Below, in pieces: positions 4,347 to 32,000 of a stretch of DNA of 32,000 bases; the stretch's first letter is position 1, and each line of letters opens with the position of its first letter. Under the pieces are notes generated by a model. That model was not told the DNA's origin. It ran no database searches and worked only from the letters and a program-made list of their open reading frames with translations. A program made the translations under genes and the position numbers. The stretch comes from an uncultured bacterium (GTDB lineage: Bacteria > Patescibacteriota > Gracilibacteria > UBA1369 > PNNO01): contig OY969931.1 of assembly GCA_963704705.1 (NCBI GenBank), positions 510,001-542,000 of the forward strand, in the 5' to 3' direction.

Positions 4347-5594
4347 CTATTTAAAAATACCGTTTGAGCGAAGATAATGATGTTTAGGTAGTCCCATAAA
4401 ACGGCATTTCTTTAATATTTCCTTGGCTTGCTTTTTTGATTTATAAGTAAGCTTTCCTGTAAGAAATTTAGTTACAATATTGAAAAATCTATTGGATAGA
4501 TATTGAACTTGTTTTGTATCAGTAACAAATTGATATGCTCTGGCATATTGTGAGAAATATTGATTTTGTTTCTTTTTATCCAGCCATAAAAATTCTTTAA
4601 GTCTTGCAATTCTTTTTGTTTCTGTTGTATGTGGATTATATTTGAATCGTTTTTTCCATTCTTTTGATATTCTGGTAATGCTTTTTTGAGGAAATTGAAC
4701 TTTCCCGTCTTTATATTGTAAACCGTGAAAATCAAAAGTTAAGTCATTAATGTTGCCGAATTGGCATTTATCCAGATTAAATTCGAGTTTCAATTTTTTA
4801 ATTTCTGTTTCAAGGTATAGTTTTATTTTTCTAAGTTTAACCGGGTCTTTATCCATTATTATAAAATCATCTCCTACTCTTCTGTACAGTGCAACCTGTT
4901 TTCCAATTATGTTATCAAGGTGATTTACATTCAAATTAAGGAAATGAGGACAAAAAGTCATACCCTGCAAAATACCTGTTCTATATGACATTAATGTTCC
5001 TTTATTAATGAATGGCTGTTTGATTATATTTCTTATGATTTCAAGAACGCGATCTTCAAAATCCATATTTTTTAGAATCTTCAAAATTATTTCATGATCT
5101 ATAAAATCAGCATATTTTTTAATATCCATTCTTAATACATATAATTCTTTACCGTAATTTCTAAGATAGAATCGCCTAACGCTTCTTGATGCGTAATAAC
5201 TGGCTTTATCACTTCTGAATGAATATACATAATCTGAATATGCAGCTGCAATAACCGGTTCGATTTGTCTTAATACGGCCTGACATTTAATTCTGTCTTT
5301 TAAAGTTAAAGAAAATGTGCCTCTGATTCCACCGTCTTTTTTAGGAACTTCGATATATTTTGCAGGTAATAAATTAACACCTGTTTTTAATTCTTTTTGG
5401 ACTGTTGCAAGCAGTTTATCGATATTTATTTCTGCCTTGGAAAGTGTTTGTCCATCAATACCTTTATAGCTATAAGTTTTGCATTTTTCAGTAAATTTTT
5501 TATATAAATCCAAATATGCCTGGCTTATGTTGTCCCAGGACACAATTGCATCATACATCGAAATTGGTTCTTTTGTTTTGAATAAATTCAGCAT
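4347..5594 (-). CDS. Stand-alone prokaryotic reverse transcriptase (415 aa): RT fingers/palm plus an alpha-helical C-terminal extension
   Basis: RT motifs by eye: motifs 1-2 PKKDGGIRGTFSLTLKDRIKCQAV (aa 84-107); YSFRSDKASYYA; motif 3 LRMDIKKYADFIDH (aa 155-167); motif 4 GILQGMTFCPHFLNL; motif 5 LYRRVGDDFIIM (V240-G-D-D243, nt 4866-4877); motifs 6-7 LEFNLDKCQF....FDFHGLQY. There is no endonuclease, nitrilase, primase or other fused domain. Confidence 0.9.
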   Translation of the reverse strand: MLNLFKTKEPISMYDAIVSWDNISQAYLDLYKKFTEKCKTYSYKGIDGQTLSKAEINIDKLLATVQKELKTGVNLLPAKYIEVPKKDGGIRGTFSLTLKDRIKCQAVLRQIEPVIAAAYSDYVYSFRSDKASYYASRSVRRFYLRNYGKELYVLRMDIKKYADFIDHEIILKILKNMDFEDRVLEIIRNIIKQPFINKGTLMSYRTGILQGMTFCPHFLNLNVNHLDNIIGKQVALYRRVGDDFIIMDKDPVKLRKIKLYLETEIKKLKLEFNLDKCQFGNINDLTFDFHGLQYKDGKVQFPQKSITRISKEWKKRFKYNPHTTETKRIARLKEFLWLDKKKQNQYFSQYARAYQFVTDTKQVQYLSNRFFNIVTKFLTGKLTYKSKKQAKEILKKCRFMGLPKHHYLRSNGIFK

Positions 5595-10114: not shown

Positions 10115-10687
10115 ATGGAAGAAAACAAAAAACCAGTTCCACCAATGATGGAACAAAAATTAGTAAAATTTGAGATCGGAAAATTGCTTGCATTAGTCAT
10201 TACTGTAGTTGTAGTTGCAGGTGTTGCAGGTATATTCCTTACTTCAAATTATTTTAAGGGTGATCTTGGTGATGCTCAAAACGGAGCATTAAGTCAAGAT
10301 GAAGAATTTGCTTTACAGCAGAATTGTAATACTTTTACAATTCCACAAATTCAGGAGAGATTATCAAGTTCTTATGTAACTGCTGAAGAAAAAAGTATTC
10401 TTCATGCATGTATGAATGAATTATATGAAGATAGATCAACAGTACCTCAGATAGTTCCAAAAGATGATGACACTGTAAATACAACAGTACCTCAGATAGT
10501 TCCAAGAGATGATGATACTGTAAATACAACAGTACCTCAGATAGTTCCAAAAGATGATGACACTGTAAATACAACAGTACCTGCGATAGTTCCAAAAGAT
10601 GATGACACTGTAAATACAACAGTACCTCAGATAGTTCCAAGAGATGATGATACTGTAAATACAACAGTACCTGCGATAAAAAAATAA
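10115..10687 (+). CDS. Single-pass membrane protein with a C-terminal array of 15-aa repeats (TVPQIVPKDDDTVNT)
   Basis: N-terminal TM helix LLALVITVVVVAGVAGIFLT. The exported part ends in 5.3 tandem 15-aa repeats. A promoter lies upstream and a terminator downstream. Confidence 0.7.
   Translation: MEENKKPVPPMMEQKLVKFEIGKLLALVITVVVVAGVAGIFLTSNYFKGDLGDAQNGALSQDEEFALQQNCNTFTIPQIQERLSSSYVTAEEKSILHACMNELYEDRSTVPQIVPKDDDTVNTTVPQIVPRDDDTVNTTVPQIVPKDDDTVNTTVPAIVPKDDDTVNTTVPQIVPRDDDTVNTTVPAIKK
10439..10678 (+). repeat. 45-bp in-frame tandem repeat, 5 full units plus a 15-nt partial unit
   Basis: Units start at 10439, 10484, 10529, 10574, 10619 and 10664 (partial). Two unit variants occur: AAA..GAC (Lys) and AGA..GAT (Arg). 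A further CAG/GCG (Gln/Ala) difference is present in unit 4 and the partial unit. Confidence 0.95.
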
Positions 10688-10712
10688 AAGTATTTTAATA
10701 ATTTAAAATTTT

Positions 10713-10750
10713 AAAGGGTTCCATTGCATATGCTTGGTACCCTTTTTTTA
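10713..10750 (+). terminator. Rho-independent terminator after the repeat-protein gene
   Basis: GGGTTCCA (10716-10723) pairs with TGGTACCC (10735-10742) with one mismatch, followed by T7 (10743-10749). It lies inside the N-terminal extension of ORF-track entry 10724..11578, which argues that extension is not translated. Confidence 0.7.
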
Positions 10751-24845: not shown

Positions 24846-25649
24846 ATGAACGATAACGAATTATACAAACTCTGCCAGGAGTATGGAGTAAAGGCTCGCA
24901 AATGGAAAAATAAATTTATTTCTTTGCTCCCTGAAGTTGCAAAAAGAGAACTTTATAAAAAGAAAGGTTTTGAATCCATTTATGAATTTGCAGCAAAAGT
25001 GGGAGGAGTTGGAAGAAAAACAGTTGAAGCGGTTTTTCAGGTTCAAAAATATATTGAAGATAAACCGGCACTTAAAGCTGTTTTGCCAAAAGTTGGAATA
25101 AATAAGATTAGAACAATTGCAACACTGGCAACCCAGGAAAATCAAATTGAACTTGCTGATAAAGTTATTAAAATGTCTAAACCTGCACTTGAACTTTATG
25201 CTAAAGAACAAAGAGCGCCAAAAATTGAAACTCCTCCCGGGAGGAAAATGAGAATTTTAAGTTTTCATGTAGATGAAGCGGTTGAATTGGAATTAAGAAA
25301 ATTAAAAAATGAAGGAGAAACATTTAATGATGTAATGAGAAAACTTCTTGCACTTGTTCCGAAAGAGAAAGTGGTTAAGCCGCGCAAGACAAAAAAGTCG
25401 AAATCGAGGCCGGTTCCTGCCCAACAACGACGCGAAGTTTCAGCTGAAACAAATGGTAAATGTTCAATCCCGGGCTGCAACAAGCCGGCTGAAGAAATCC
25501 ATCACAAAAAACCATGGGCAATATTTAAAAAACACGATGAGCTACAAGCCCTTTGCAAAGGCCATCATGAGCTCAAACATCAAGGTGACACGCTGATCGA
25601 TAAAAAATTTAGAATGTATAAAATGCAGGCAGCATTAAATTCGGGTTAA
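24846..25649 (+). CDS. HNH endonuclease-domain protein with a helical N-terminal domain
   Basis: C-terminus CSIPGCNKPAEEIHHKKPWAIFKKHDELQALCKGHHELKH (CxxC...HH...CxxH HNH/zinc-finger layout), preceded by a basic linker KPRKTKKSKSRP. Confidence 0.75.
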   Translation: MNDNELYKLCQEYGVKARKWKNKFISLLPEVAKRELYKKKGFESIYEFAAKVGGVGRKTVEAVFQVQKYIEDKPALKAVLPKVGINKIRTIATLATQENQIELADKVIKMSKPALELYAKEQRAPKIETPPGRKMRILSFHVDEAVELELRKLKNEGETFNDVMRKLLALVPKEKVVKPRKTKKSKSRPVPAQQRREVSAETNGKCSIPGCNKPAEEIHHKKPWAIFKKHDELQALCKGHHELKHQGDTLIDKKFRMYKMQAALNSG

Positions 25650-25714: not shown

Positions 25715-27790
25715 ATGGATTTCAACATATTCTTTGAGGGAAAATTTGTTTATCACGGGGGCGCGGAAAAGCCACGTGGTCAAGAAGCTGCTTCACAAAA
25801 AACAGGAAAAGACTCATTTAATGAAAGAATGGATTATATTGAACAAAAAATGAAAGCCCTGGAAGACAGAATAGCGGAAAAATTGGCAGAATTAAAAGGT
25901 AAAAGAACAAGATTAAGCACAAGGAGAAAAATTAAAAGATTGGAAAAAACAGTCAAAGACATAAGAGAAAAAATAAAGAAATTAAAAGAAATGAGGGAAA
26001 AAGACAGGGAAAAGGCTATTGTTATAGTTAATAAAAAACTTGATGACGTGATGAAGAGAGAAGGTGTTAAGCTACCGGAAAATCCTGCAAAAGCACCGAA
26101 TACGCCTTCAAAGTATGGACCAAGTGAATCCAAAATAGGTCCGCGGGAATACACGAAATTAACTAAAAAACAGGAAATTGCTATTAAGCAGCTTGGTAGA
26201 TACATCGCAATGGATCTTAATAAACTTAATGAAGTAGGTTATTTAAGATCTGATATTAGAAATGTTTTAAATGTAAGAGTTAGACAACTTGTTTTTATTT
26301 TGGGATATGATCCGGATAAACCGCATTTAAGTTTAAAACATCATGAATATTTTAAATTACCAAACGGTTATTCTCTTGCTCTTTACAAGTGGAAAAAAGA
26401 TCCCCAATCAAAACCTAATGTAATGTTTTATAAAGGTTCTGAACTGGTACTTTATCAGCAAGACGGCGGATTCCAGGCACCGGAAGGTGACACACATATT
26501 GATAAAGGAAGGCAATATGCGGAGATGGTAAAATGTTTTCATTTATTTCCGCAAACTTTTTATGTTGAAAAAGGGAAATTGGTAATTAAAAACGGAAAAG
26601 AGGATGAATTTCATAAACTCTTAGGGGATATCATGAAATTCAGCGGAAAATTTAAATGGGATGTCAGAATTCACGGTTGTGCATTAGGCTATAGTCCGGA
26701 TCAAAAAGGGCTGATAATTACACCTTACAATACTGATTTTAAATTTCTAATTAAACCTCCTTCACCAAGAATGGTTTTTGAAAGAGGTGTGGAGCCTGAT
26801 CATATTGTTTACGAGACGCCTGAGAAAAAAGCTGAAAGGGCAAATAAATTTAGAGAACAGGAGAAGGCTAAAAAAGATGCTGAAAAATTGAAAGCGCTTC
26901 AAAATCGTGAGATTGAAAGAGGAAAGGCAAAACTGGAAAACAGGATTGACGACAAAAAATACAAAAGTATTGTTCAAAAGGATATAAATCCAAAAAACCC
27001 TTATGAATTCAGAATAATTGCCAAAGATAAAAAAGCTGAGAAGCTTATAAGTAAAACAAGAATCAATGAACTTCTTAAATTAAAAAATTGCAAAAGTGTT
27101 TTGTTTGTAACAATTACAGGACCAAACGGGAAGAAAAGAGAAGGTATGTTTTATCCTGGTCAGGATACATGTTATGAGATGGTGAACGATAAACAAACTG
27201 ATCAAAGGCTTAGATTCGTTAAAGGAGATCATTTTAAAATTGCATTTGCAGAGCCGAGTAAAGAGAATTACAGAAAATTAAATCCAAAATTAAAAAGAAA
27301 TATTAAAGAACCGGTTAAAGAAAAGTCCGAATTGGATGATTTTAAAAAATTGCCGACTCTTAAGGATTATGAACAAAGAGATTTAGCAAAAAAAGCGCGG
27401 CTTTCTCAATCAAAAGAGCAGCAAGAAAAAAACAAAGCAAACTATGAAAAAATGAAAAAGCTTTTGGGAACAACATTCAGTAAATTTAAACCTAATCAAA
27501 ATAATCCAACTGAATTTAAAATAACTTCAAACTCATTGGCAAAACTTAAGATGAAAGAATTATTTGCTGGATTAAAAAACTTTAAAGATGAATCTGTACG
27601 TGTTTCAATTACCGATAAATCAGGGAAAAAACGCTTTGGGGTATGTCTTCCGGGGCAAAACCCTCCTGCGATTTACAGAATAGAAAACGGAAAACAAACA
27701 AATAATGAAATGAAATTTTTTAGAAACGAATTAATCAGGGTAGAATTTTCTAAATCAAAACCAAAACAAAAACCTAATGGAAAAAAATAG
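25715..27790 (+). CDS. Large lysine-rich hypothetical protein (coiled-coil N-terminus, central globular region, two ~90-aa C-terminal repeat modules)
   Basis: 691 aa with no signal peptide or TM helix. The internal duplication is aa 424-516 versus 592-683 (shared NP.EF.I...V.(V/F).IT...GKKR.G...PGQ.....Y...N.KQT.....F). Its 3' end overlaps the next gene's start by 14 nt. Confidence 0.7.
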   Translation: MDFNIFFEGKFVYHGGAEKPRGQEAASQKTGKDSFNERMDYIEQKMKALEDRIAEKLAELKGKRTRLSTRRKIKRLEKTVKDIREKIKKLKEMREKDREKAIVIVNKKLDDVMKREGVKLPENPAKAPNTPSKYGPSESKIGPREYTKLTKKQEIAIKQLGRYIAMDLNKLNEVGYLRSDIRNVLNVRVRQLVFILGYDPDKPHLSLKHHEYFKLPNGYSLALYKWKKDPQSKPNVMFYKGSELVLYQQDGGFQAPEGDTHIDKGRQYAEMVKCFHLFPQTFYVEKGKLVIKNGKEDEFHKLLGDIMKFSGKFKWDVRIHGCALGYSPDQKGLIITPYNTDFKFLIKPPSPRMVFERGVEPDHIVYETPEKKAERANKFREQEKAKKDAEKLKALQNREIERGKAKLENRIDDKKYKSIVQKDINPKNPYEFRIIAKDKKAEKLISKTRINELLKLKNCKSVLFVTITGPNGKKREGMFYPGQDTCYEMVNDKQTDQRLRFVKGDHFKIAFAEPSKENYRKLNPKLKRNIKEPVKEKSELDDFKKLPTLKDYEQRDLAKKARLSQSKEQQEKNKANYEKMKKLLGTTFSKFKPNQNNPTEFKITSNSLAKLKMKELFAGLKNFKDESVRVSITDKSGKKRFGVCLPGQNPPAIYRIENGKQTNNEMKFFRNELIRVEFSKSKPKQKPNGKK

Positions 27791-28892
27791 TAAAAAAATT
27801 AGAAAATTTTTTGCACAATTGGCACTGGTGCTTGTATTAAGCGCAATGCTTATCTCGTTTTCAAATTCAGTATTGGCAGCTGCTGGAGATGCTGTGGGCC
27901 AGAATAATGCAACAAGTGGTTCAACCCCGGTTGATAATCCGAATGCATCAACTGCTCCATCAACACCTACAACTTCAACATCTGGTACGCAGCCAATAAC
28001 TGCTCCCGGTGCAGGTAAGGAGAATTTAATTTTTGTGCCACTTGATACAAGTGCATATCAGGATTTACCTCACCTTACACAGGTAACTCCTACTGGTATG
28101 TTAAACGAATTTGTAAGCGGAATAATCAAAAACGGTAAATGGATTTTGGGAGCTTTTGCAGTGCTTTATATCGTTGTTGCAGCTATAAAATTAATAATAG
28201 CAGGTGATAACGAAGATACTGTTACAAAACAAAAAAATGCAATTATGTATGGAATCATAGGTTTGGTTGTAATTGGATTTGCAAATGATATAACCAGAGT
28301 TTTGTCTGTGGCATGCGCTCCGGGCCAGATTGATTGTGCAAAAGGCGGATTTTTAAAAGATCCGGCCAATATGGTTCAGCAGGCAGCCTTATTTACTCAA
28401 ACAACAAGAATACTCATAACATTTATTAAATATGCTATCGGAGGCATTGCAGTTTTGATGCTTGTAAGGAATGGTTTGAGACTTGTTGCTTTGGCAGGAA
28501 ATGAAGAAAGTGTGACAATTGATAAAAAGAATCTTATTTATACATCAATTGGTTTGGTTTTAATTATTCTTGCAAGCAGTTTTGTCGATAAAATTTTATT
28601 CATTGTTGATCCTTTAAAATACTCAACAATTACAGGAGTTGAGCCGGCTATCAATCCAACAAGGGCTGCTCAGGAAGTTGTGGGTATAACAAACTGGGCG
28701 GTTTTATTTACGGCTCCCCTGGGGATTTTAATGTTGATTGCGGGTGCTTTAATGTATGCGGCATCTGCCGGAAACGAGGAGCAAATGACGAAAGCAAAGC
28801 GTTTAATTATGTTCGCAATTATTGGTATGGCAGTAATTTACGGTGCTTTTGCCATTGTTAGTACCGTTATATCAGGTCAATTTATTCCGTAA
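27777..28892 (+). CDS. Secreted/membrane protein with three tandem TrbC/VirB2-like (type IV secretion 'pilin') modules
   Basis: Signal peptide (FAQLALVLVLSAMLISFSNSVLAAA), then a Pro/Thr/Ser-rich linker, then three TM-loop-TM hairpins with the loop motif AG(D/N)EE: IIAGDNEDTVTKQKNAIMYGIIGLVVIG (nt ~28098-28292), ALAGNEESVTIDKKNLIYTSIGLVLII (~28368-28592) and ASAGNEEQMTKAKRLIMFAIIGMAVIYGAFAIV (~28659-28877). Confidence 0.75.
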   Translation: MEKNSKKIRKFFAQLALVLVLSAMLISFSNSVLAAAGDAVGQNNATSGSTPVDNPNASTAPSTPTTSTSGTQPITAPGAGKENLIFVPLDTSAYQDLPHLTQVTPTGMLNEFVSGIIKNGKWILGAFAVLYIVVAAIKLIIAGDNEDTVTKQKNAIMYGIIGLVVIGFANDITRVLSVACAPGQIDCAKGGFLKDPANMVQQAALFTQTTRILITFIKYAIGGIAVLMLVRNGLRLVALAGNEESVTIDKKNLIYTSIGLVLIILASSFVDKILFIVDPLKYSTITGVEPAINPTRAAQEVVGITNWAVLFTAPLGILMLIAGALMYAASAGNEEQMTKAKRLIMFAIIGMAVIYGAFAIVSTVISGQFIP

Positions 28893-28899
28893 TTAATTT

Positions 28900-29847
28900 A
28901 TGAAAACAAAAAACTTTCTTAAATCATTGGTTCTGGTTCTTACATTGGCTACTTTATGCCTTACAATTAAGCATGTTTTTGAAACAAGCATTGTGAATGC
29001 GGCCCTTGATACTACTTATTTGGACAAAATTCAAAATGTTACGGATTTACCAACATTTGACAGTTCTCATGGGCAGGCAATTCAAAGACCTGGAGTTTCG
29101 AATATAACCAGCGCAGTATTTTTTGTGTTGGATATGCTTAAATTTTTAATAGGAGGTGTTGCGGTAATAATACTTATTCTCATCGGAGTTCGTTTAATAA
29201 TTGCCCGCAAAAAAATCGATGAAGTATGGCCTAAACAAAAAGAACATCTGATAATGATTGCTACTGGATTTGTATTAATAATGCTCGCTGATTATTTGGT
29301 TAAAAGGGTGTTATTTGGTGCTGAAGGCGAAGTATATCAATCAGAGGCATCTGTTCAGTTAGCAGCAGGAGCCGCCACAGAACAGATTAAAGGTATTTAT
29401 AATTTAGCCATGATTCTAGTAGGACTGTTAGCTGTTTTGATGACAATTATTGCCGGATTCAGATTATTAATAAGTGCAGGTAATGAGGAAGCTCAAACCA
29501 AAGTAAAAAAACAGATGACATGGCTTATAATTGGTTTATTTGTTATTGGTGTCGCAGAATTTGTTGTTCAGGATTTTATATTTCCAAACAAAGGAGCACA
29601 GATTCCCGCAGCAGATCAAGGTATAAAACTAATTGTAAGCTTTACAAATTTTGCTGCAGCCTTTATTTCAATCATTGCATTTATTGTGTCATTGTATGGA
29701 GGTTATTTATATGTAATTGCTGCAGGAAATGAAGAACAGACCACGAAGGCTAAAAAGGTACTTATGGGTGCGATTATAGCCCTTATTCTAGGGCTTGGAG
29801 CATTTGCTGTAGTTAATAGTGTGATTCAGCTTAAGCCAGGAGCTTAA
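28900..29847 (+). CDS. Paralogous protein with three TrbC/VirB2-like pilin modules (the first is degenerate)
   Basis: Signal peptide, then modules IIARKKIDEVWPKQKEHLIMIATGFVLIM (degenerate loop), ISAGNEEAQTKVKKQMTWLIIGLFVIGVAEFVV and IAAGNEEQTTKAKKVLMGAIIALILGLGAFAVVN. Confidence 0.75.
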   Translation: MKTKNFLKSLVLVLTLATLCLTIKHVFETSIVNAALDTTYLDKIQNVTDLPTFDSSHGQAIQRPGVSNITSAVFFVLDMLKFLIGGVAVIILILIGVRLIIARKKIDEVWPKQKEHLIMIATGFVLIMLADYLVKRVLFGAEGEVYQSEASVQLAAGAATEQIKGIYNLAMILVGLLAVLMTIIAGFRLLISAGNEEAQTKVKKQMTWLIIGLFVIGVAEFVVQDFIFPNKGAQIPAADQGIKLIVSFTNFAAAFISIIAFIVSLYGGYLYVIAAGNEEQTTKAKKVLMGAIIALILGLGAFAVVNSVIQLKPGA

Positions 29848-29850
29848 ATA

Positions 29851-29879
29851 TTGTAAAAAACTTAATTTTCTGCTATAAT
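29851..29879 (+). promoter_or_regulatory. Candidate promoter for the pilin-PKD gene
   Basis: TTGTAA (29851-29856), a 17-nt spacer ending in TGc, then TATAAT (29874-29879), i.e. an extended -10, 25 nt upstream of the ATG at 29904. Confidence 0.5.
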
Positions 29880-29903: not shown

Positions 29904-32000
29904 ATGAAAAAATTATCAAAATATATCGGAATAATATTTGTAGCTACATTGTTTGCTACTTTTCTTATGAATATTCAAGTCGCATCTGCTGACCTATGCA
30001 GTGAACTTGCACAGTCAACAGGAGGCTTTTTTAGCTGCGGAAGTAAAGAAGTTACAACATTCACTCAGTTCCAGGGCGGTTTACAGCCACCTTCGGCTGA
30101 AGGATATGATCCTACTCTTACACAGCAAACTGATCTAAGAGATTTCATTGTTAATGCAGTGAATTTTGTACTTGGATTTTTAGGCCTTGTTGCAGTTGTA
30201 ATGGTAATCTACGGAGGATTCATGTATGTTACGGCCGCGGGACAGGAAGAGCAAACAACCAAAGGAAAGAAAAGCGTAATGTACGCGATGATTGGTATAG
30301 TTATTATTCTTATATCTTATGCATTAGTTAATACAGTTATTAAAGGAGTCGGAAAAGGAACAGATGCTGGAATTAATTCCGGGACTCAGCAACTTGCAGG
30401 AGCAGCTCCTGAAAATTTAACGGGTGATCAGACTCAGGCAATTCAAAGATTATTTTATGCTGCGGCATTGCAGGTTCAAAGAGCAGCTGAAGATTTGGCT
30501 ACTAATTATTCTCATTATGTTGATGTTGACGATGCATTGGCTCAGCTTGAAGCAGTACCGTATGTTGATCGCGCAGACCAATTACATGTATTTTTAGGAG
30601 ATATTAAACGTGCATTAAGTAATATTATTTCAGCTTCAGGTGAGTTGAGCAGAACTTCTGAAGCAGCTAAGTTTGCAGAAGATTATGTTGATACATTTTT
30701 AAATCAATCTCAGCAGCAATTGACTGCTGATTGGACTACTTGGTGGTCGGACAACAGTGCTGATCTTCAATATGAAATAGATGCAATACTTACAGAGTCA
30801 GGAGCAGAAGGTGAAAGTATATGGAAAGCAAATCTGCTTGATTTTGCTGATGCAGTTGAAAAAATCATTAGTAATTTAAATGATTTAAAAAAACAGATTG
30901 AAAGCTCAGGATTAGTTACAACTTCTGAAACTGATTTTGGTGTAGCTTTTGATAGAGCTGTAAATAGTTTGGAAAATCTAATACCAATCGGTTTTGAAGT
31001 TCCGACAAATCAAAAAGTGATTGACGCACTTGAAGCATTAAGTGATTTACACACCGTGGTTCAGAACATCAAGTTTGTAGCAGCAATTATTAATGCGGAT
31101 GTTACTAAAGGCAATGCTCCGTTAATAGTAAATGTTGACGCACTTAATTCAGTAAGACCGGATTATGAAAGTATTAATCAGGATGATATTGAATGGGATT
31201 TTGGTGACGGAACCATTGTTGAAGGTAAATTCGCTACTTCTCACATTTATAGGGAAACAGGAAGTTTTGTAATTAAACTTACAATTAAAGGTGATTCTGC
31301 TAAAGGAATTGCTTCTGGTGTTGCTTATCAGGATGTTAAAATCGGTCCGCCTGCATCTCAGATTAATTTAAATGTAACTGTAGGAGACAGATTCCTTGGT
31401 TATTTGAGTTTCTACAAAGACGGATTCCTGGTTATAGATAAAAATAGATTAAACGTAACTTTAACAGAAGCCCGTGATATTGGTATTACATTTGATGCTT
31501 CTGAAACAAGAGGCGGTTCGCAGTCAGAACAGGAACAGGAAGCAGGAGGAACATATATTCAAACTGTTTCATGGGATTTTGGTGATGGAAGCGATACAAT
31601 ATTTGGAGAAATGGTTGCGAATGATGTACAAACACATTATTACGGTGAAGAGGGGACATATCCTGTTATAATTGAAGTTGTTGATTCAAGAGGAATTAGA
31701 GACAGAAAAGTATTTGAGGTAGTTGTTGATTCACCGGCAGCAAGAATTGATTTGAAGCCTGGAACAACAGCGAGAATTAATGAGGATGTAACATTTGATG
31801 GTGGTCAGTCTTCAACTGATGGCGGCCAGATTTCAGGTTACAAATGGAGTGTTTCAAATCCTCAATTAAAATATTCAGCGGAAGAAACCGATGAAAGTTT
31901 TACTAGTTCATTTGAAAGCCCGGGAGTTTATGATGTTTCACTAGTTGTTAGTGACAACCTGGGAAATACAGCAACTGATAATACGAAACTTAAAATTGAA
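29904..32000 (+). CDS. Large secreted protein, 3'-truncated at the window edge: signal peptide + one TrbC/VirB2-like pilin module + ~260-aa helical region + at least three PKD-like domains. Not present in the supplied ORF track.
   Basis: My own translation from the ATG at 29904 runs 699 codons to the window end without a stop. MKKLSKYIGIIFVATLFATFLMNIQVASA (signal peptide); FVLGFLGLVAVVMVIYGGFMYVTAAGQEEQTTKGKKSVMYAMIGIVIILISYALVNTV (pilin module, nt ~30132-30341); PKD hallmarks WDFGDG at nt 31194 and 31571; and VTFDGGQS...YKWSV...GVYDVSLVVSDNLGNT. Confidence 0.85.
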   Translation, partial: MKKLSKYIGIIFVATLFATFLMNIQVASADLCSELAQSTGGFFSCGSKEVTTFTQFQGGLQPPSAEGYDPTLTQQTDLRDFIVNAVNFVLGFLGLVAVVMVIYGGFMYVTAAGQEEQTTKGKKSVMYAMIGIVIILISYALVNTVIKGVGKGTDAGINSGTQQLAGAAPENLTGDQTQAIQRLFYAAALQVQRAAEDLATNYSHYVDVDDALAQLEAVPYVDRADQLHVFLGDIKRALSNIISASGELSRTSEAAKFAEDYVDTFLNQSQQQLTADWTTWWSDNSADLQYEIDAILTESGAEGESIWKANLLDFADAVEKIISNLNDLKKQIESSGLVTTSETDFGVAFDRAVNSLENLIPIGFEVPTNQKVIDALEALSDLHTVVQNIKFVAAIINADVTKGNAPLIVNVDALNSVRPDYESINQDDIEWDFGDGTIVEGKFATSHIYRETGSFVIKLTIKGDSAKGIASGVAYQDVKIGPPASQINLNVTVGDRFLGYLSFYKDGFLVIDKNRLNVTLTEARDIGITFDASETRGGSQSEQEQEAGGTYIQTVSWDFGDGSDTIFGEMVANDVQTHYYGEEGTYPVIIEVVDSRGIRDRKVFEVVVDSPAARIDLKPGTTARINEDVTFDGGQSSTDGGQISGYKWSVSNPQLKYSAEETDESFTSSFESPGVYDVSLVVSDNLGNTATDNTKLKIE
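31112..32000 (+). other. Three PKD-like Ig domains at the C-terminal part of the pilin-fusion protein (the last is cut by the window edge)
   Basis: PLIVNVDA....IEWDFGDGT...SHIYRETGSFVIKLTIKG; ITFDASET...VSWDFGDGS...HYYGEEGTYPVIIEVVDSRG; VTFDGGQSSTDGGQISGYKWSV....FESPGVYDVSLVVSDNLGNTA. Confidence 0.7.

Follow-up and report, generated by a model that had tools for sequence, protein, structure and literature searches.

We describe a gene from an uncultured bacterium of the Candidate Phyla Radiation (CPR) that ties a VirB2-like, pilin-type hairpin to a long arm of PKD domains. The gene starts at position 29904 of the window, the 32,000-nucleotide (nt) stretch of DNA that was analyzed (window 1-32000 corresponds to C1:510001-542000 of the genome; positions are those of the window unless marked as genome coordinates). 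The genome is a single contig of 1.37 Mb with 35.5% G+C. The explanation that we favor, and hold to be probable by a modest measure, is that the product is a membrane-anchored PKD adhesin docked via its hairpin into a heteromeric VirB2-like assembly. Co-assembly, topology, adhesion, and any link to VirB4 are inferred here from sequence.

VirB2-like pilins are enriched in the CPR and essential in the one genetically tractable species; their systems have no assigned adhesin. The gene offers a concrete and bounded system in which a pilin-type hairpin is covalently tied to a long PKD arm. It lies in a core-genome cassette where two other proteins each concatenate three hairpins, and the seven hairpin positions have been kept as separate classes. 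This leads to testable predictions on the hetero-assembly of the hairpins, on a double-anchored topology, and on adhesin genes controlled by a promoter of their own. Should the hairpins co-assemble, the cassette would show conjugative-type pilins rebuilt into an attachment device in episymbiotic bacteria.

Architecture of the hairpin-PKD protein

The frame opened by the ATG at 29904 is uninterrupted through 699 codons up to the end of the window, as reported in a first-pass annotation of the sequence, and extends to a stop at genome position 544355, 2.35 kb beyond the window. The product has 1483 amino acids (aa). That annotation named a frameshift or a stop as the observation that would speak against it; the whole-genome sequence was checked for both, and the gene is free of them and of any N. 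The protein contains, in this order, a signal peptide, a PF18895 hairpin, a linker, a seven-helix bundle, ten PKD/Ig-like domains, and a C-terminal transmembrane (TM) segment (Table 1). Pfam and AlphaFold2 agree with the earlier description of a signal peptide, a hairpin, a helical part, and at least three PKD-like domains, and the two WDFGDG motifs it listed are located at aa 431 and 567. The helical stretch had been estimated at ~260 aa: the helices stand, but they occupy only ~215 aa (aa 175-387).

A hydropathy scan found segments at aa 4-22, 88-106, and 128-146, plus the C-terminal one. The N-terminal regions were modeled with AlphaFold2 using an alignment of 65 orthologs, all translated from fetched loci. 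The model has a mean predicted local distance difference test (pLDDT) of 80 and a predicted template-modeling score (pTM) of 0.65. It shows a helix at aa 4-21, a hairpin with arms at aa 78-110 and 115-149, a low-confidence linker at aa 148-173, seven helices between aa 175 and 387, and the first PKD domain (PKD1). M1 is nearly invariant across homologs, and the cleavage site of the signal peptide was read off the sequence by eye, without a prediction tool. We quantified the conservation of each region as the mean frequency of the top residue among 64 full-length orthologs. In the ecto-segment (aa 30-76, mean conservation 0.49) F53, G58, and Y68 are invariant or nearly so, and model confidence is low.

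The helices of the bundle, or stalk, span aa 175-216, 224-245, 250-271, 275-297, 306-334, 344-357, and 369-387, with pLDDT mostly between 85 and 97. The stalk is also the least conserved region of the protein (0.27, with no column conserved at 90% or more). When compared with the PDB, it gave helical matches in Foldseek with template-modeling scores (TM-scores) of at most 0.18, and its sequence profile retrieved only non-specific helical bundles (E >= 0.001). As modeled, the stalk is a confidently predicted family-specific fold without known structural relative. A VirB5/TraC-like tip domain was considered for this region and rejected: Pfam gave no VirB5-type match, and neither the PDB profile search nor Foldseek supported it.

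The PKD array is recognized over the full protein by PKD_4 (203 bits) and PKD (179 bits), with seven stretches each, and three stretches fall in the part within the window. A family-specific profile, derived from PKD1, identified ten tandem PKD/Ig-like domains at aa 395-1436, of which seven, together with the C-terminal TM, lie past the window end. Conservation of the PKD region is about 0.5. Foldseek searches of the PDB with the long model gave matches only in PKD1, to the PKD domains of ColG/ColH (E 6e-5, target-normalized TM-score ~0.8), the third match being the PKD domain of an archaeal surface-layer protein. From the signal peptide and the positive-inside pattern, the PKD domains are predicted to lie outside the membrane.

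The C-terminal TM peaks at aa 1448-1466 in the scan; we took it as aa ~1453-1473, followed by a KEVKIKK tail. The TM helix and the basic tail are found here and in at least 66 of 100 homologs. We rejected the protein as a sortase substrate: its C-terminus, ...ETQANILGNTNIPLILLNLAIFGIVSLSLYQLSLKEVKIKK, has no LPXTG, and the loose motif ahead of the TM is not present in the other tail-anchored proteins of the genome. That motif, (G/S)AN(L/I/V)(F/L), lies in the C-terminal region (genome ~544220-544355), ~10 residues ahead of the TM, recurs even in homologs that are ~30% identical, and could be a processing or juxtamembrane signal. A sortase gene is present at genome 450660-451091.

Table 1. Features of the hairpin-PKD gene and of its cassette (window positions unless marked as genome)
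Feature	Position	Strand	Evidence
Start codon and Sec-type signal peptide, aa 1-29 (...IQVASA/DL)	29904..29990	+	ORF (open reading frame), hydropathy aa 4-22, model helix aa 4-21
N-terminal ecto-segment, aa 30-76, with Cys32/Cys45 and FTxFxGxLxxPxxxGY motif	29991..30131	+	Conservation
VirB2-like (PF18895) two-helix hairpin, aa 77-145	30132..30338	+	Pfam, AlphaFold2, conservation
Gly/Thr/Ser-rich flexible linker, aa 146-174	30339..30425	+	pLDDT <50 at aa 148-173; conservation 0.32
Predicted seven-helix bundle (stalk), aa 175-390	30426..31073	+	AlphaFold2 helices
PKD domain 1, aa 395-481	31086..31346	+	Pfam PKD/PKD_4, Foldseek, family's own profile 75 bits
PKD domain 2, aa 518-607	31455..31724	+	hmmsearch with the family's own profile, independent E-value 9.5e-10; WDFGDG at aa 567
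PKD domain 3, aa 621-701	31764..32000, running off the window	+	Pfam PKD_4 at aa 617-694
Cassette gene 1: 371-aa protein, three VirB2-like hairpins (A1-A3)	27777..28892	+	PF18895, three stretches, 90.9 bits
Cassette gene 2: 315-aa protein, three VirB2-like hairpins (B1-B3)	28900..29847	+	PF18895, three stretches, 88.5 bits
Cassette gene 4: 775-aa protein with three TM helices and PKD domains (3TM-PKD)	genome 544366-546693		Directly downstream of the hairpin-PKD gene
Promoter-like TTGTAA-17 nt-TATAAT with upstream TG (extended -10), in the 56-nt spacer	29851..29879	+	10 of 12 consensus positions

The hairpin, its relatives, and the conserved cassette

The hairpin matches PF18895 (T4SS_pilin, of type IV secretion systems, T4SS) at aa 79-144, with 36.1 bits on the part within the window and 34.8 bits on the full protein (cutoff 26.6). 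Hence, the domain annotation suggested in the first pass placed both the hairpin and the PKD domains above threshold. The related profiles gave lower scores: 22.2/20.9 bits for PF04956 (TrbC), below its threshold of 27.9, and 36.6 bits for NF045849, under its cutoff of 40. The protein follows the PF18895 layout, where a signal peptide precedes two hydrophobic helices with a short basic loop. Here, the loop AAGQEEQTTKGKK is basic (KGKK) and predicted to be cytoplasmic. It differs from a small stand-alone pilin (roughly 70-150 aa) in being 1483 aa long and carrying additional domains. When modeled alone, the hairpin is a clean two-helix structure with pLDDT of 92-97.

The conservation of the hairpin (0.70) is the highest in the protein, and 22 of its 69 columns are conserved at 90% or more. 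The two other membrane segments, the signal peptide (0.34) and the C-terminal TM (0.35), have no such column. The conserved positions include polar residues and glycines, N87, G94, Y103, G105, G131, N143, and T144, a pattern that is expected from a specific helix-packing interface, unlike a generic membrane anchor. This suggests that the hairpin is a specific co-assembly module beyond its role as an anchor. The first-pass annotation had raised the possibility of an ordinary signal-anchor unrelated to the neighboring pilin modules. When tested, the hairpin turned out to be homologous to the six modules of its two neighbors, since the family hairpin profile gives 109 bits on the hairpin-PKD protein and 39-69 bits on each of them (49.5-66.3 bits for A1-A3). 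NF045849 also recognizes the second neighbor, with 52.4 bits, above its cutoff of 40.

The closest relative of the hairpin within the genome is not one of these modules. A free 135-aa pilin with a signal peptide, encoded at genome 184267-184674, carries a hairpin that shares 59% identity with that of the fusion over 80 aa; the identity extends to residues just past helix 2 and is 59-62% across comparisons. The six neighboring modules are only 23-43% identical to the fusion hairpin, B3 being the closest (43%). The giant is in effect, at the sequence level, the small free pilin plus a C-terminal extension of ~1340 aa, with the ecto-segment (aa 30-76) being absent from the free protein. Orthologs of the free pilin co-occur with the fusion in the same metagenome-assembled genomes (MAGs; loci L077 with L009, L080 with L007, and L083 with L006), and frames of ~130-165 aa matching the hairpin were present in most same-order genomes among the match rows inspected. 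The free pilin is a candidate for the major subunit of a hairpin-built structure. Its gene follows a 292-aa ORF (genome 183283-184161).

To relate the modules, we built a tree of the seven hairpins (A1-A3, B1-B3, and that of the fusion, F) from 28 genomes and of five free pilins. The alignment is short (69 columns), so that the internal order is unreliable. The position classes themselves are clear. Each of A1, A2, A3, B1, B2, B3, and F falls on one side of a single branch, a separation that 500 shuffles of the labels failed to equal. With 100% support, {F, free pilin, A3, B3} are split off from {A1, A2, B1, B2}. The former type, which includes the last hairpin of each triple protein, ends in (A/F)(L/I/V)VNT(V). 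Judging from these sequences, the seven cassette positions are separate ancient orthologous classes, fixed before the lineages diverged and unexchanged since. Old, non-interchangeable hairpin positions are what a defined hetero-assembly predicts.

The surroundings of the gene are equally stable. ORF calling and profile labeling revealed the near-invariant order rplA<, rplK<, nusG<, secE<, triple-hairpin>, triple-hairpin>, hairpin-stalk-PKD>, 3TM-PKD>. The neighbors were counted over the 71 loci that carry the fusion. Of the 59 loci with room upstream, 57 have two multi-hairpin genes immediately before it; a PKD gene comes right after it in 52 of 56, and nusG/secE lie upstream within 5.5 kb in 46 of 50. 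The association with the two upstream multi-pilin genes, which the first-pass annotation had noted, is thus evolutionarily fixed. The 3TM-PKD protein combines a Pro/Ala-rich, cytoplasmic N-terminal part with three TM helices and six PKD domains. Its TM2-loop aligns with helix 1 of the pilins in hhalign (probability 86%, E 5e-6, 38 columns; 1.4% for the reversed control), and its orthologs at loci L021 and L025 pass the hairpin profile at E < 1e-3, so that it probably holds a degenerate pilin hairpin.

The fusion is widespread in related bacteria, where the first-pass annotation had suggested searching for it. A word-indexed search with aa 1-420 retrieved 100 proteins, nearly all of 1400-1700 aa and with precomputed PF18895 and PKD matches, which brings the homologs of the same architecture to about 100. 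Those with a name are annotated as 'PKD domain-containing protein' and come from Peregrinibacteria, Gracilibacteria, or the Patescibacteria group. With an exhaustive search we obtained 110 representative clusters at 50% identity (E <= 1e-30), and a scan of species-representative genomes gave 80 loci, in MAGs of Peregrinibacteria, Peribacteria, and 'Gracilibacteria'. Among 151 genomes sampled from the class, all 16 that belong to the source's order have the full-length fusion; outside this order the matches were mostly hairpin-only, some of them within other giant frames. In distant members the hairpin is fused to Big_5, Cys-rich repeats, or collagen-like repeats, making 'hairpin plus large ectodomain' a wider theme. 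We found no description of the hairpin-stalk-PKD fusion in the literature searched.

Proposed assembly and competing explanations

We propose that the hairpin-PKD protein is a Sec-exported surface protein of a single-membrane CPR cell of the Peregrinibacteria/Peribacteria type. After cleavage of the signal peptide, the hairpin would span the cytoplasmic membrane, its basic loop facing the cell interior, and ~1300 residues, comprising the linker, the seven-helix bundle, and the ten PKD/Ig domains, would be outside. The C-terminal TM and the basic tail would then tie the far end back to the same membrane, here and in most orthologs. This topology (N-out, loop-in, ~1300 aa out, tail-in) is read from three features, namely the signal peptide and the basic character of both the loop and the C-terminal tail. 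The hairpin would dock the PKD arm into a fixed hetero-assembly made of the two triple-hairpin proteins, probably the 3TM-PKD protein, and possibly the free pilin. Such an assembly could take the form of a short stub resembling a pilus, or of a ring or platform in the membrane, and would display the PKD arrays so that the cell could attach to a host, a partner cell, or another surface. With a rough estimate of ~4 nm per PKD domain, the arm would reach tens of nm. The VirB4-like ATPase, unlinked but universally conserved, may energize the assembly. The first-pass annotation had allowed for a binding module on the structure or at its tip or base. A place at the base of a membrane-proximal hairpin assembly, or inside it, fits better. 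The tip is disfavored since the C-terminal TM and the basic tail, present in most orthologs, should hold the far end in the cell's own membrane, and the stalk has no VirB5/TraC likeness.

The genome encodes a single VirB4-like ATPase (778 aa, P-loop_TraG/AAA_10, genome 854834-857173), ~310 kb from the cassette and beside gyrA and an S41 protease. It was found in 40 of 41 same-order genomes with 62-75% identity and is hence a core gene, near-universal in the order like the fusion (16 of 16), so that the co-occurrence of the two says nothing about a dependence of one on the other. Four scattered VirD4/TrsD-like paralogs, with frames of 744-886 aa, lie at genome 497.7, 644.7, 668.6, and 736.6 kb. 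In line with this, dispersed components and a missing VirB6 have been described for the T4SS of the class Gracilibacteria, in a study that detected no adhesins in Patescibacteria T4SS and makes no reference to PKD or to fusions of pilins (Quinonero-Coronel et al. 2025, PMC12102498). The predicted pilins in the T4SS cluster of Southlakia epibionticum are essential (Wang et al. 2023, PMC10633639). A 2025 review (PMC12857230) presents the Patescibacterial systems as the exception among monoderm T4SSs in having VirB2-like proteins, and states that they may produce pili and have no VirB5. Large exported proteins are mentioned in the papers on the Peribacteria genome (PMC4736985) and on Vampirococcus (PMC8080830), in both cases without the hairpin-stalk-PKD architecture. 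In the literature searched, PF18895 is otherwise named only as a freshwater-enriched domain.

Several observations weigh against a PKD adhesin docked into a hairpin assembly. None of the 71 orthologous loci has VirB4 within ±10 kb of the fusion, and TrbL/VirB6 reaches only 18.9 bits in the genome, which is sub-threshold. No PF18895 protein has been shown to polymerize in the literature searched. The hairpin-only model gave only generic helical hairpins in Foldseek searches of the PDB, all with E > 1 and with no conjugative pilin among the top 50 matches, and a search of the PDB with the hairpin sequence profile returned nothing relevant; the membership of the hairpin in PF18895 thus rests on the sequence profile of the family. 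The TM2-loop-TM3 of the 3TM-PKD protein resembles the pilin hairpin weakly (11.8 bits with the family profile). PKD domains are generic, being also present in S-layer (surface-layer) and enzyme-associated proteins, and it is only their type that suggests adhesion. Finally, a subclade of orthologs has no C-terminal anchor. The double-anchored geometry is therefore not universal, and the hairpin would be the constant attachment point.

The comparison with known systems reveals partial similarities. The Patescibacteria VirB2-like pilins (PF18895/PF04956) are of the same family and, like the protein described here, have a signal peptide ahead of a hairpin whose two helices are joined by a basic loop. 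They also occur as several diverged paralogs per genome, in arrays, in monoderm CPR with VirB4 and no relaxase-type conjugation context. However, they are small separate proteins, whereas here the hairpin carries ~1340 aa of stalk, ten PKD domains, and C-terminal anchor, has three-hairpin neighbors, and belongs to a cassette that is unlinked to VirB4 and lies beside secE-nusG. The Mbov_0395/MMCAP2_0565 proteins (NF045849) from integrative and conjugative elements of Mollicutes are also VirB2-like two-TM proteins of wall-less or monoderm bacteria, but they are 80-aa proteins of conjugative elements and not a core chromosomal giant. PKD domains are shared with ColG/ColH and with archaeal S-layer proteins, but a VirB2-type hairpin, this family's stalk, and conserved multi-hairpin partners are all missing from those. 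VirB5/TraC in Gram-negative bacteria and the PrgB-type LPXTG adhesins in Gram-positive ones provide a possible functional analogy, in the contact with target cells (PMC12857230). Yet the protein has no VirB5 likeness in sequence or fold, no LPXTG, and no polymer-adhesin domain, and those adhesins are separate subunits whereas this one is covalently fused to a pilin-type module. The Pam pilus (PamA/B/R; Troman et al. 2026 preprint, PMC13278184) is a CPR-specific surface appendage, where PamR, an Ig/FnIII protein with a C-terminal TM anchor, is the proposed filament tether. Its pilins have an Ig fold and use donor-strand exchange, whereas the modules described here are helical hairpins. Membership in this system was rejected, as the PamR profile NF058578 gives 42.7 bits against a cutoff of 300, over one PKD-like stretch only.

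A bolder version of the docked adhesin can be put forward tentatively, as possible rather than probable. The cassette could encode an undescribed heteromeric VirB2-hairpin machine, with three, three, and one hairpin positions, a probable degenerate eighth, and the free pilin, serving Peregrinibacteria-type CPR bacteria as a host-contact organelle in the form of a short pilus or conduit. The protein would then be the first T4SS-type pilin with its own adhesin arm, filling the missing VirB5/PrgB role in Patescibacteria.

We regard as somewhat unlikely that the protein is a plain surface-coat protein or adhesin, in which the hairpin is a mere anchor drawn from an abundant CPR family, the PKD array acts alone, and the multi-hairpin genes are merely co-located. 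This would be in line with the frequency of PKD arrays in surface and S-layer proteins, as in the third Foldseek match of PKD1, and with the SLH-domain proteins and many tail-anchored exported proteins encoded in the genome. The fusion of the hairpin to unrelated ectodomains in other lineages also suggests a portable anchor, and the cassette lacks linked assembly machinery. Yet a mere anchor does not fit a hairpin that is twice as conserved as the other two membrane segments and has invariant polar and glycine positions, nor a four-gene order fixed across an order-level clade, nor seven hairpin positions that each form an ancient orthologous class.

An adhesin at the tip or in the shaft of a pilus, where the hairpin polymerizes with the free or triple pilins into a VirB4-made filament and the PKD arm acts as a VirB5 analog, seems to us distinctly unlikely. 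The pilin C-terminus points outward in F-type pili of known structure, which makes a C-terminal extension sterically possible. Further, the fusion hairpin and the free pilin belong to one hairpin type, VirB4 is conserved across the order, the orthologs of one subclade lack the C-terminal anchor, and Patescibacterial T4SSs, as mentioned above, may elaborate pili and lack VirB5. However, the C-terminal TM and the basic tail, with no LPXTG-type cleavage motif, are at odds with a filament in this protein and in most homologs, the helical domain has no similarity to VirB5/TraC, and the cassette is unlinked to both VirB4 and VirD4. An appendage of 1340 aa per subunit could not be packed in a filament, so that the protein would be a rare subunit at most.

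Finally, it is highly unlikely that the hairpins form a channel or envelope scaffold for uptake or envelope integrity, with the PKD domains as spacers or binders of the cell's own wall polymers: the fixed site beside secE-nusG-rplKA and the near-universal vertical inheritance do resemble a housekeeping envelope function, the nearest (non-significant) Foldseek look-alikes of the hairpin include the ring-forming ATP-synthase c subunits, and the PKD cores stay moderately conserved beside a fast-evolving stalk, but nothing speaks specifically for a channel, an exposed stalk that evolves fast and extended Ig arrays are rather what one would expect of surfaces for interaction, and the cassette has no transporter or wall-synthesis genes.

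Promoter and neighboring genes

The extended -10 promoter reported in the first-pass annotation is present upstream of the hairpin-PKD gene, although as a single site it is not above chance: the scan of the region gave 21 promoter-like sites for 19.7 expected. Its recurrence is more informative. In 34 of 65 orthologous spacers (median length 56 nt), at loci whose proteins are only ~30% identical, a TGnTAnAAT motif precedes the start by ~25-30 nt, and a rough estimate from base composition puts its chance occurrence at ~1% per spacer. Loci with spacers of 9-20 nt have no extended -10. These patterns suggest that the adhesin genes probably have their own promoter in many lineages, which would allow a dosage different from that of the hairpin proteins.

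Between secE and the cassette, the source genome has two inserted genes, encoding proteins of 267 aa (24846-25649) and 691 aa (25715-27790). The former has a Cys/His motif. The latter is Lys/Glu-rich, its stop overlaps the start of the first pilin gene, and it recurs only in close relatives (L008, L010). On the other side, and again only in close relatives, the cassette is followed by a gene for a 770-aa protein (genome 546917-549229) that has a TM helix at its N-terminus, regions rich in Cys and in Thr/Pro, and no match in Pfam or NCBIfam. Its C-terminus, PSTGPE-hydrophobic-RRKKKK, resembles an LPXTG-type sorting signal.

At the other end of the window, a 748-aa protein (2-2248, + strand; its ORF begins at the first bases of the window) has five FlgD-Ig-like and three SLH domains. 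Its sequence suggests that this CPR bacterium has a surface layer anchored by SLH domains. The action of a diversity-generating retroelement on the hairpin-PKD gene was considered and rejected, as the search for direct repeats over the whole window gave only short, low-identity pairs and no template/variable pair. The window does encode a 415-aa reverse transcriptase (RVT_1, 60.6 bits; 4347-5594, - strand). It also contains, at 10392-10723, six tandem copies with a period of 45 nt, up to 96% identical and located inside and just past a 190-aa ORF (10115-10687), where such a period would correspond to a 15-residue protein repeat.

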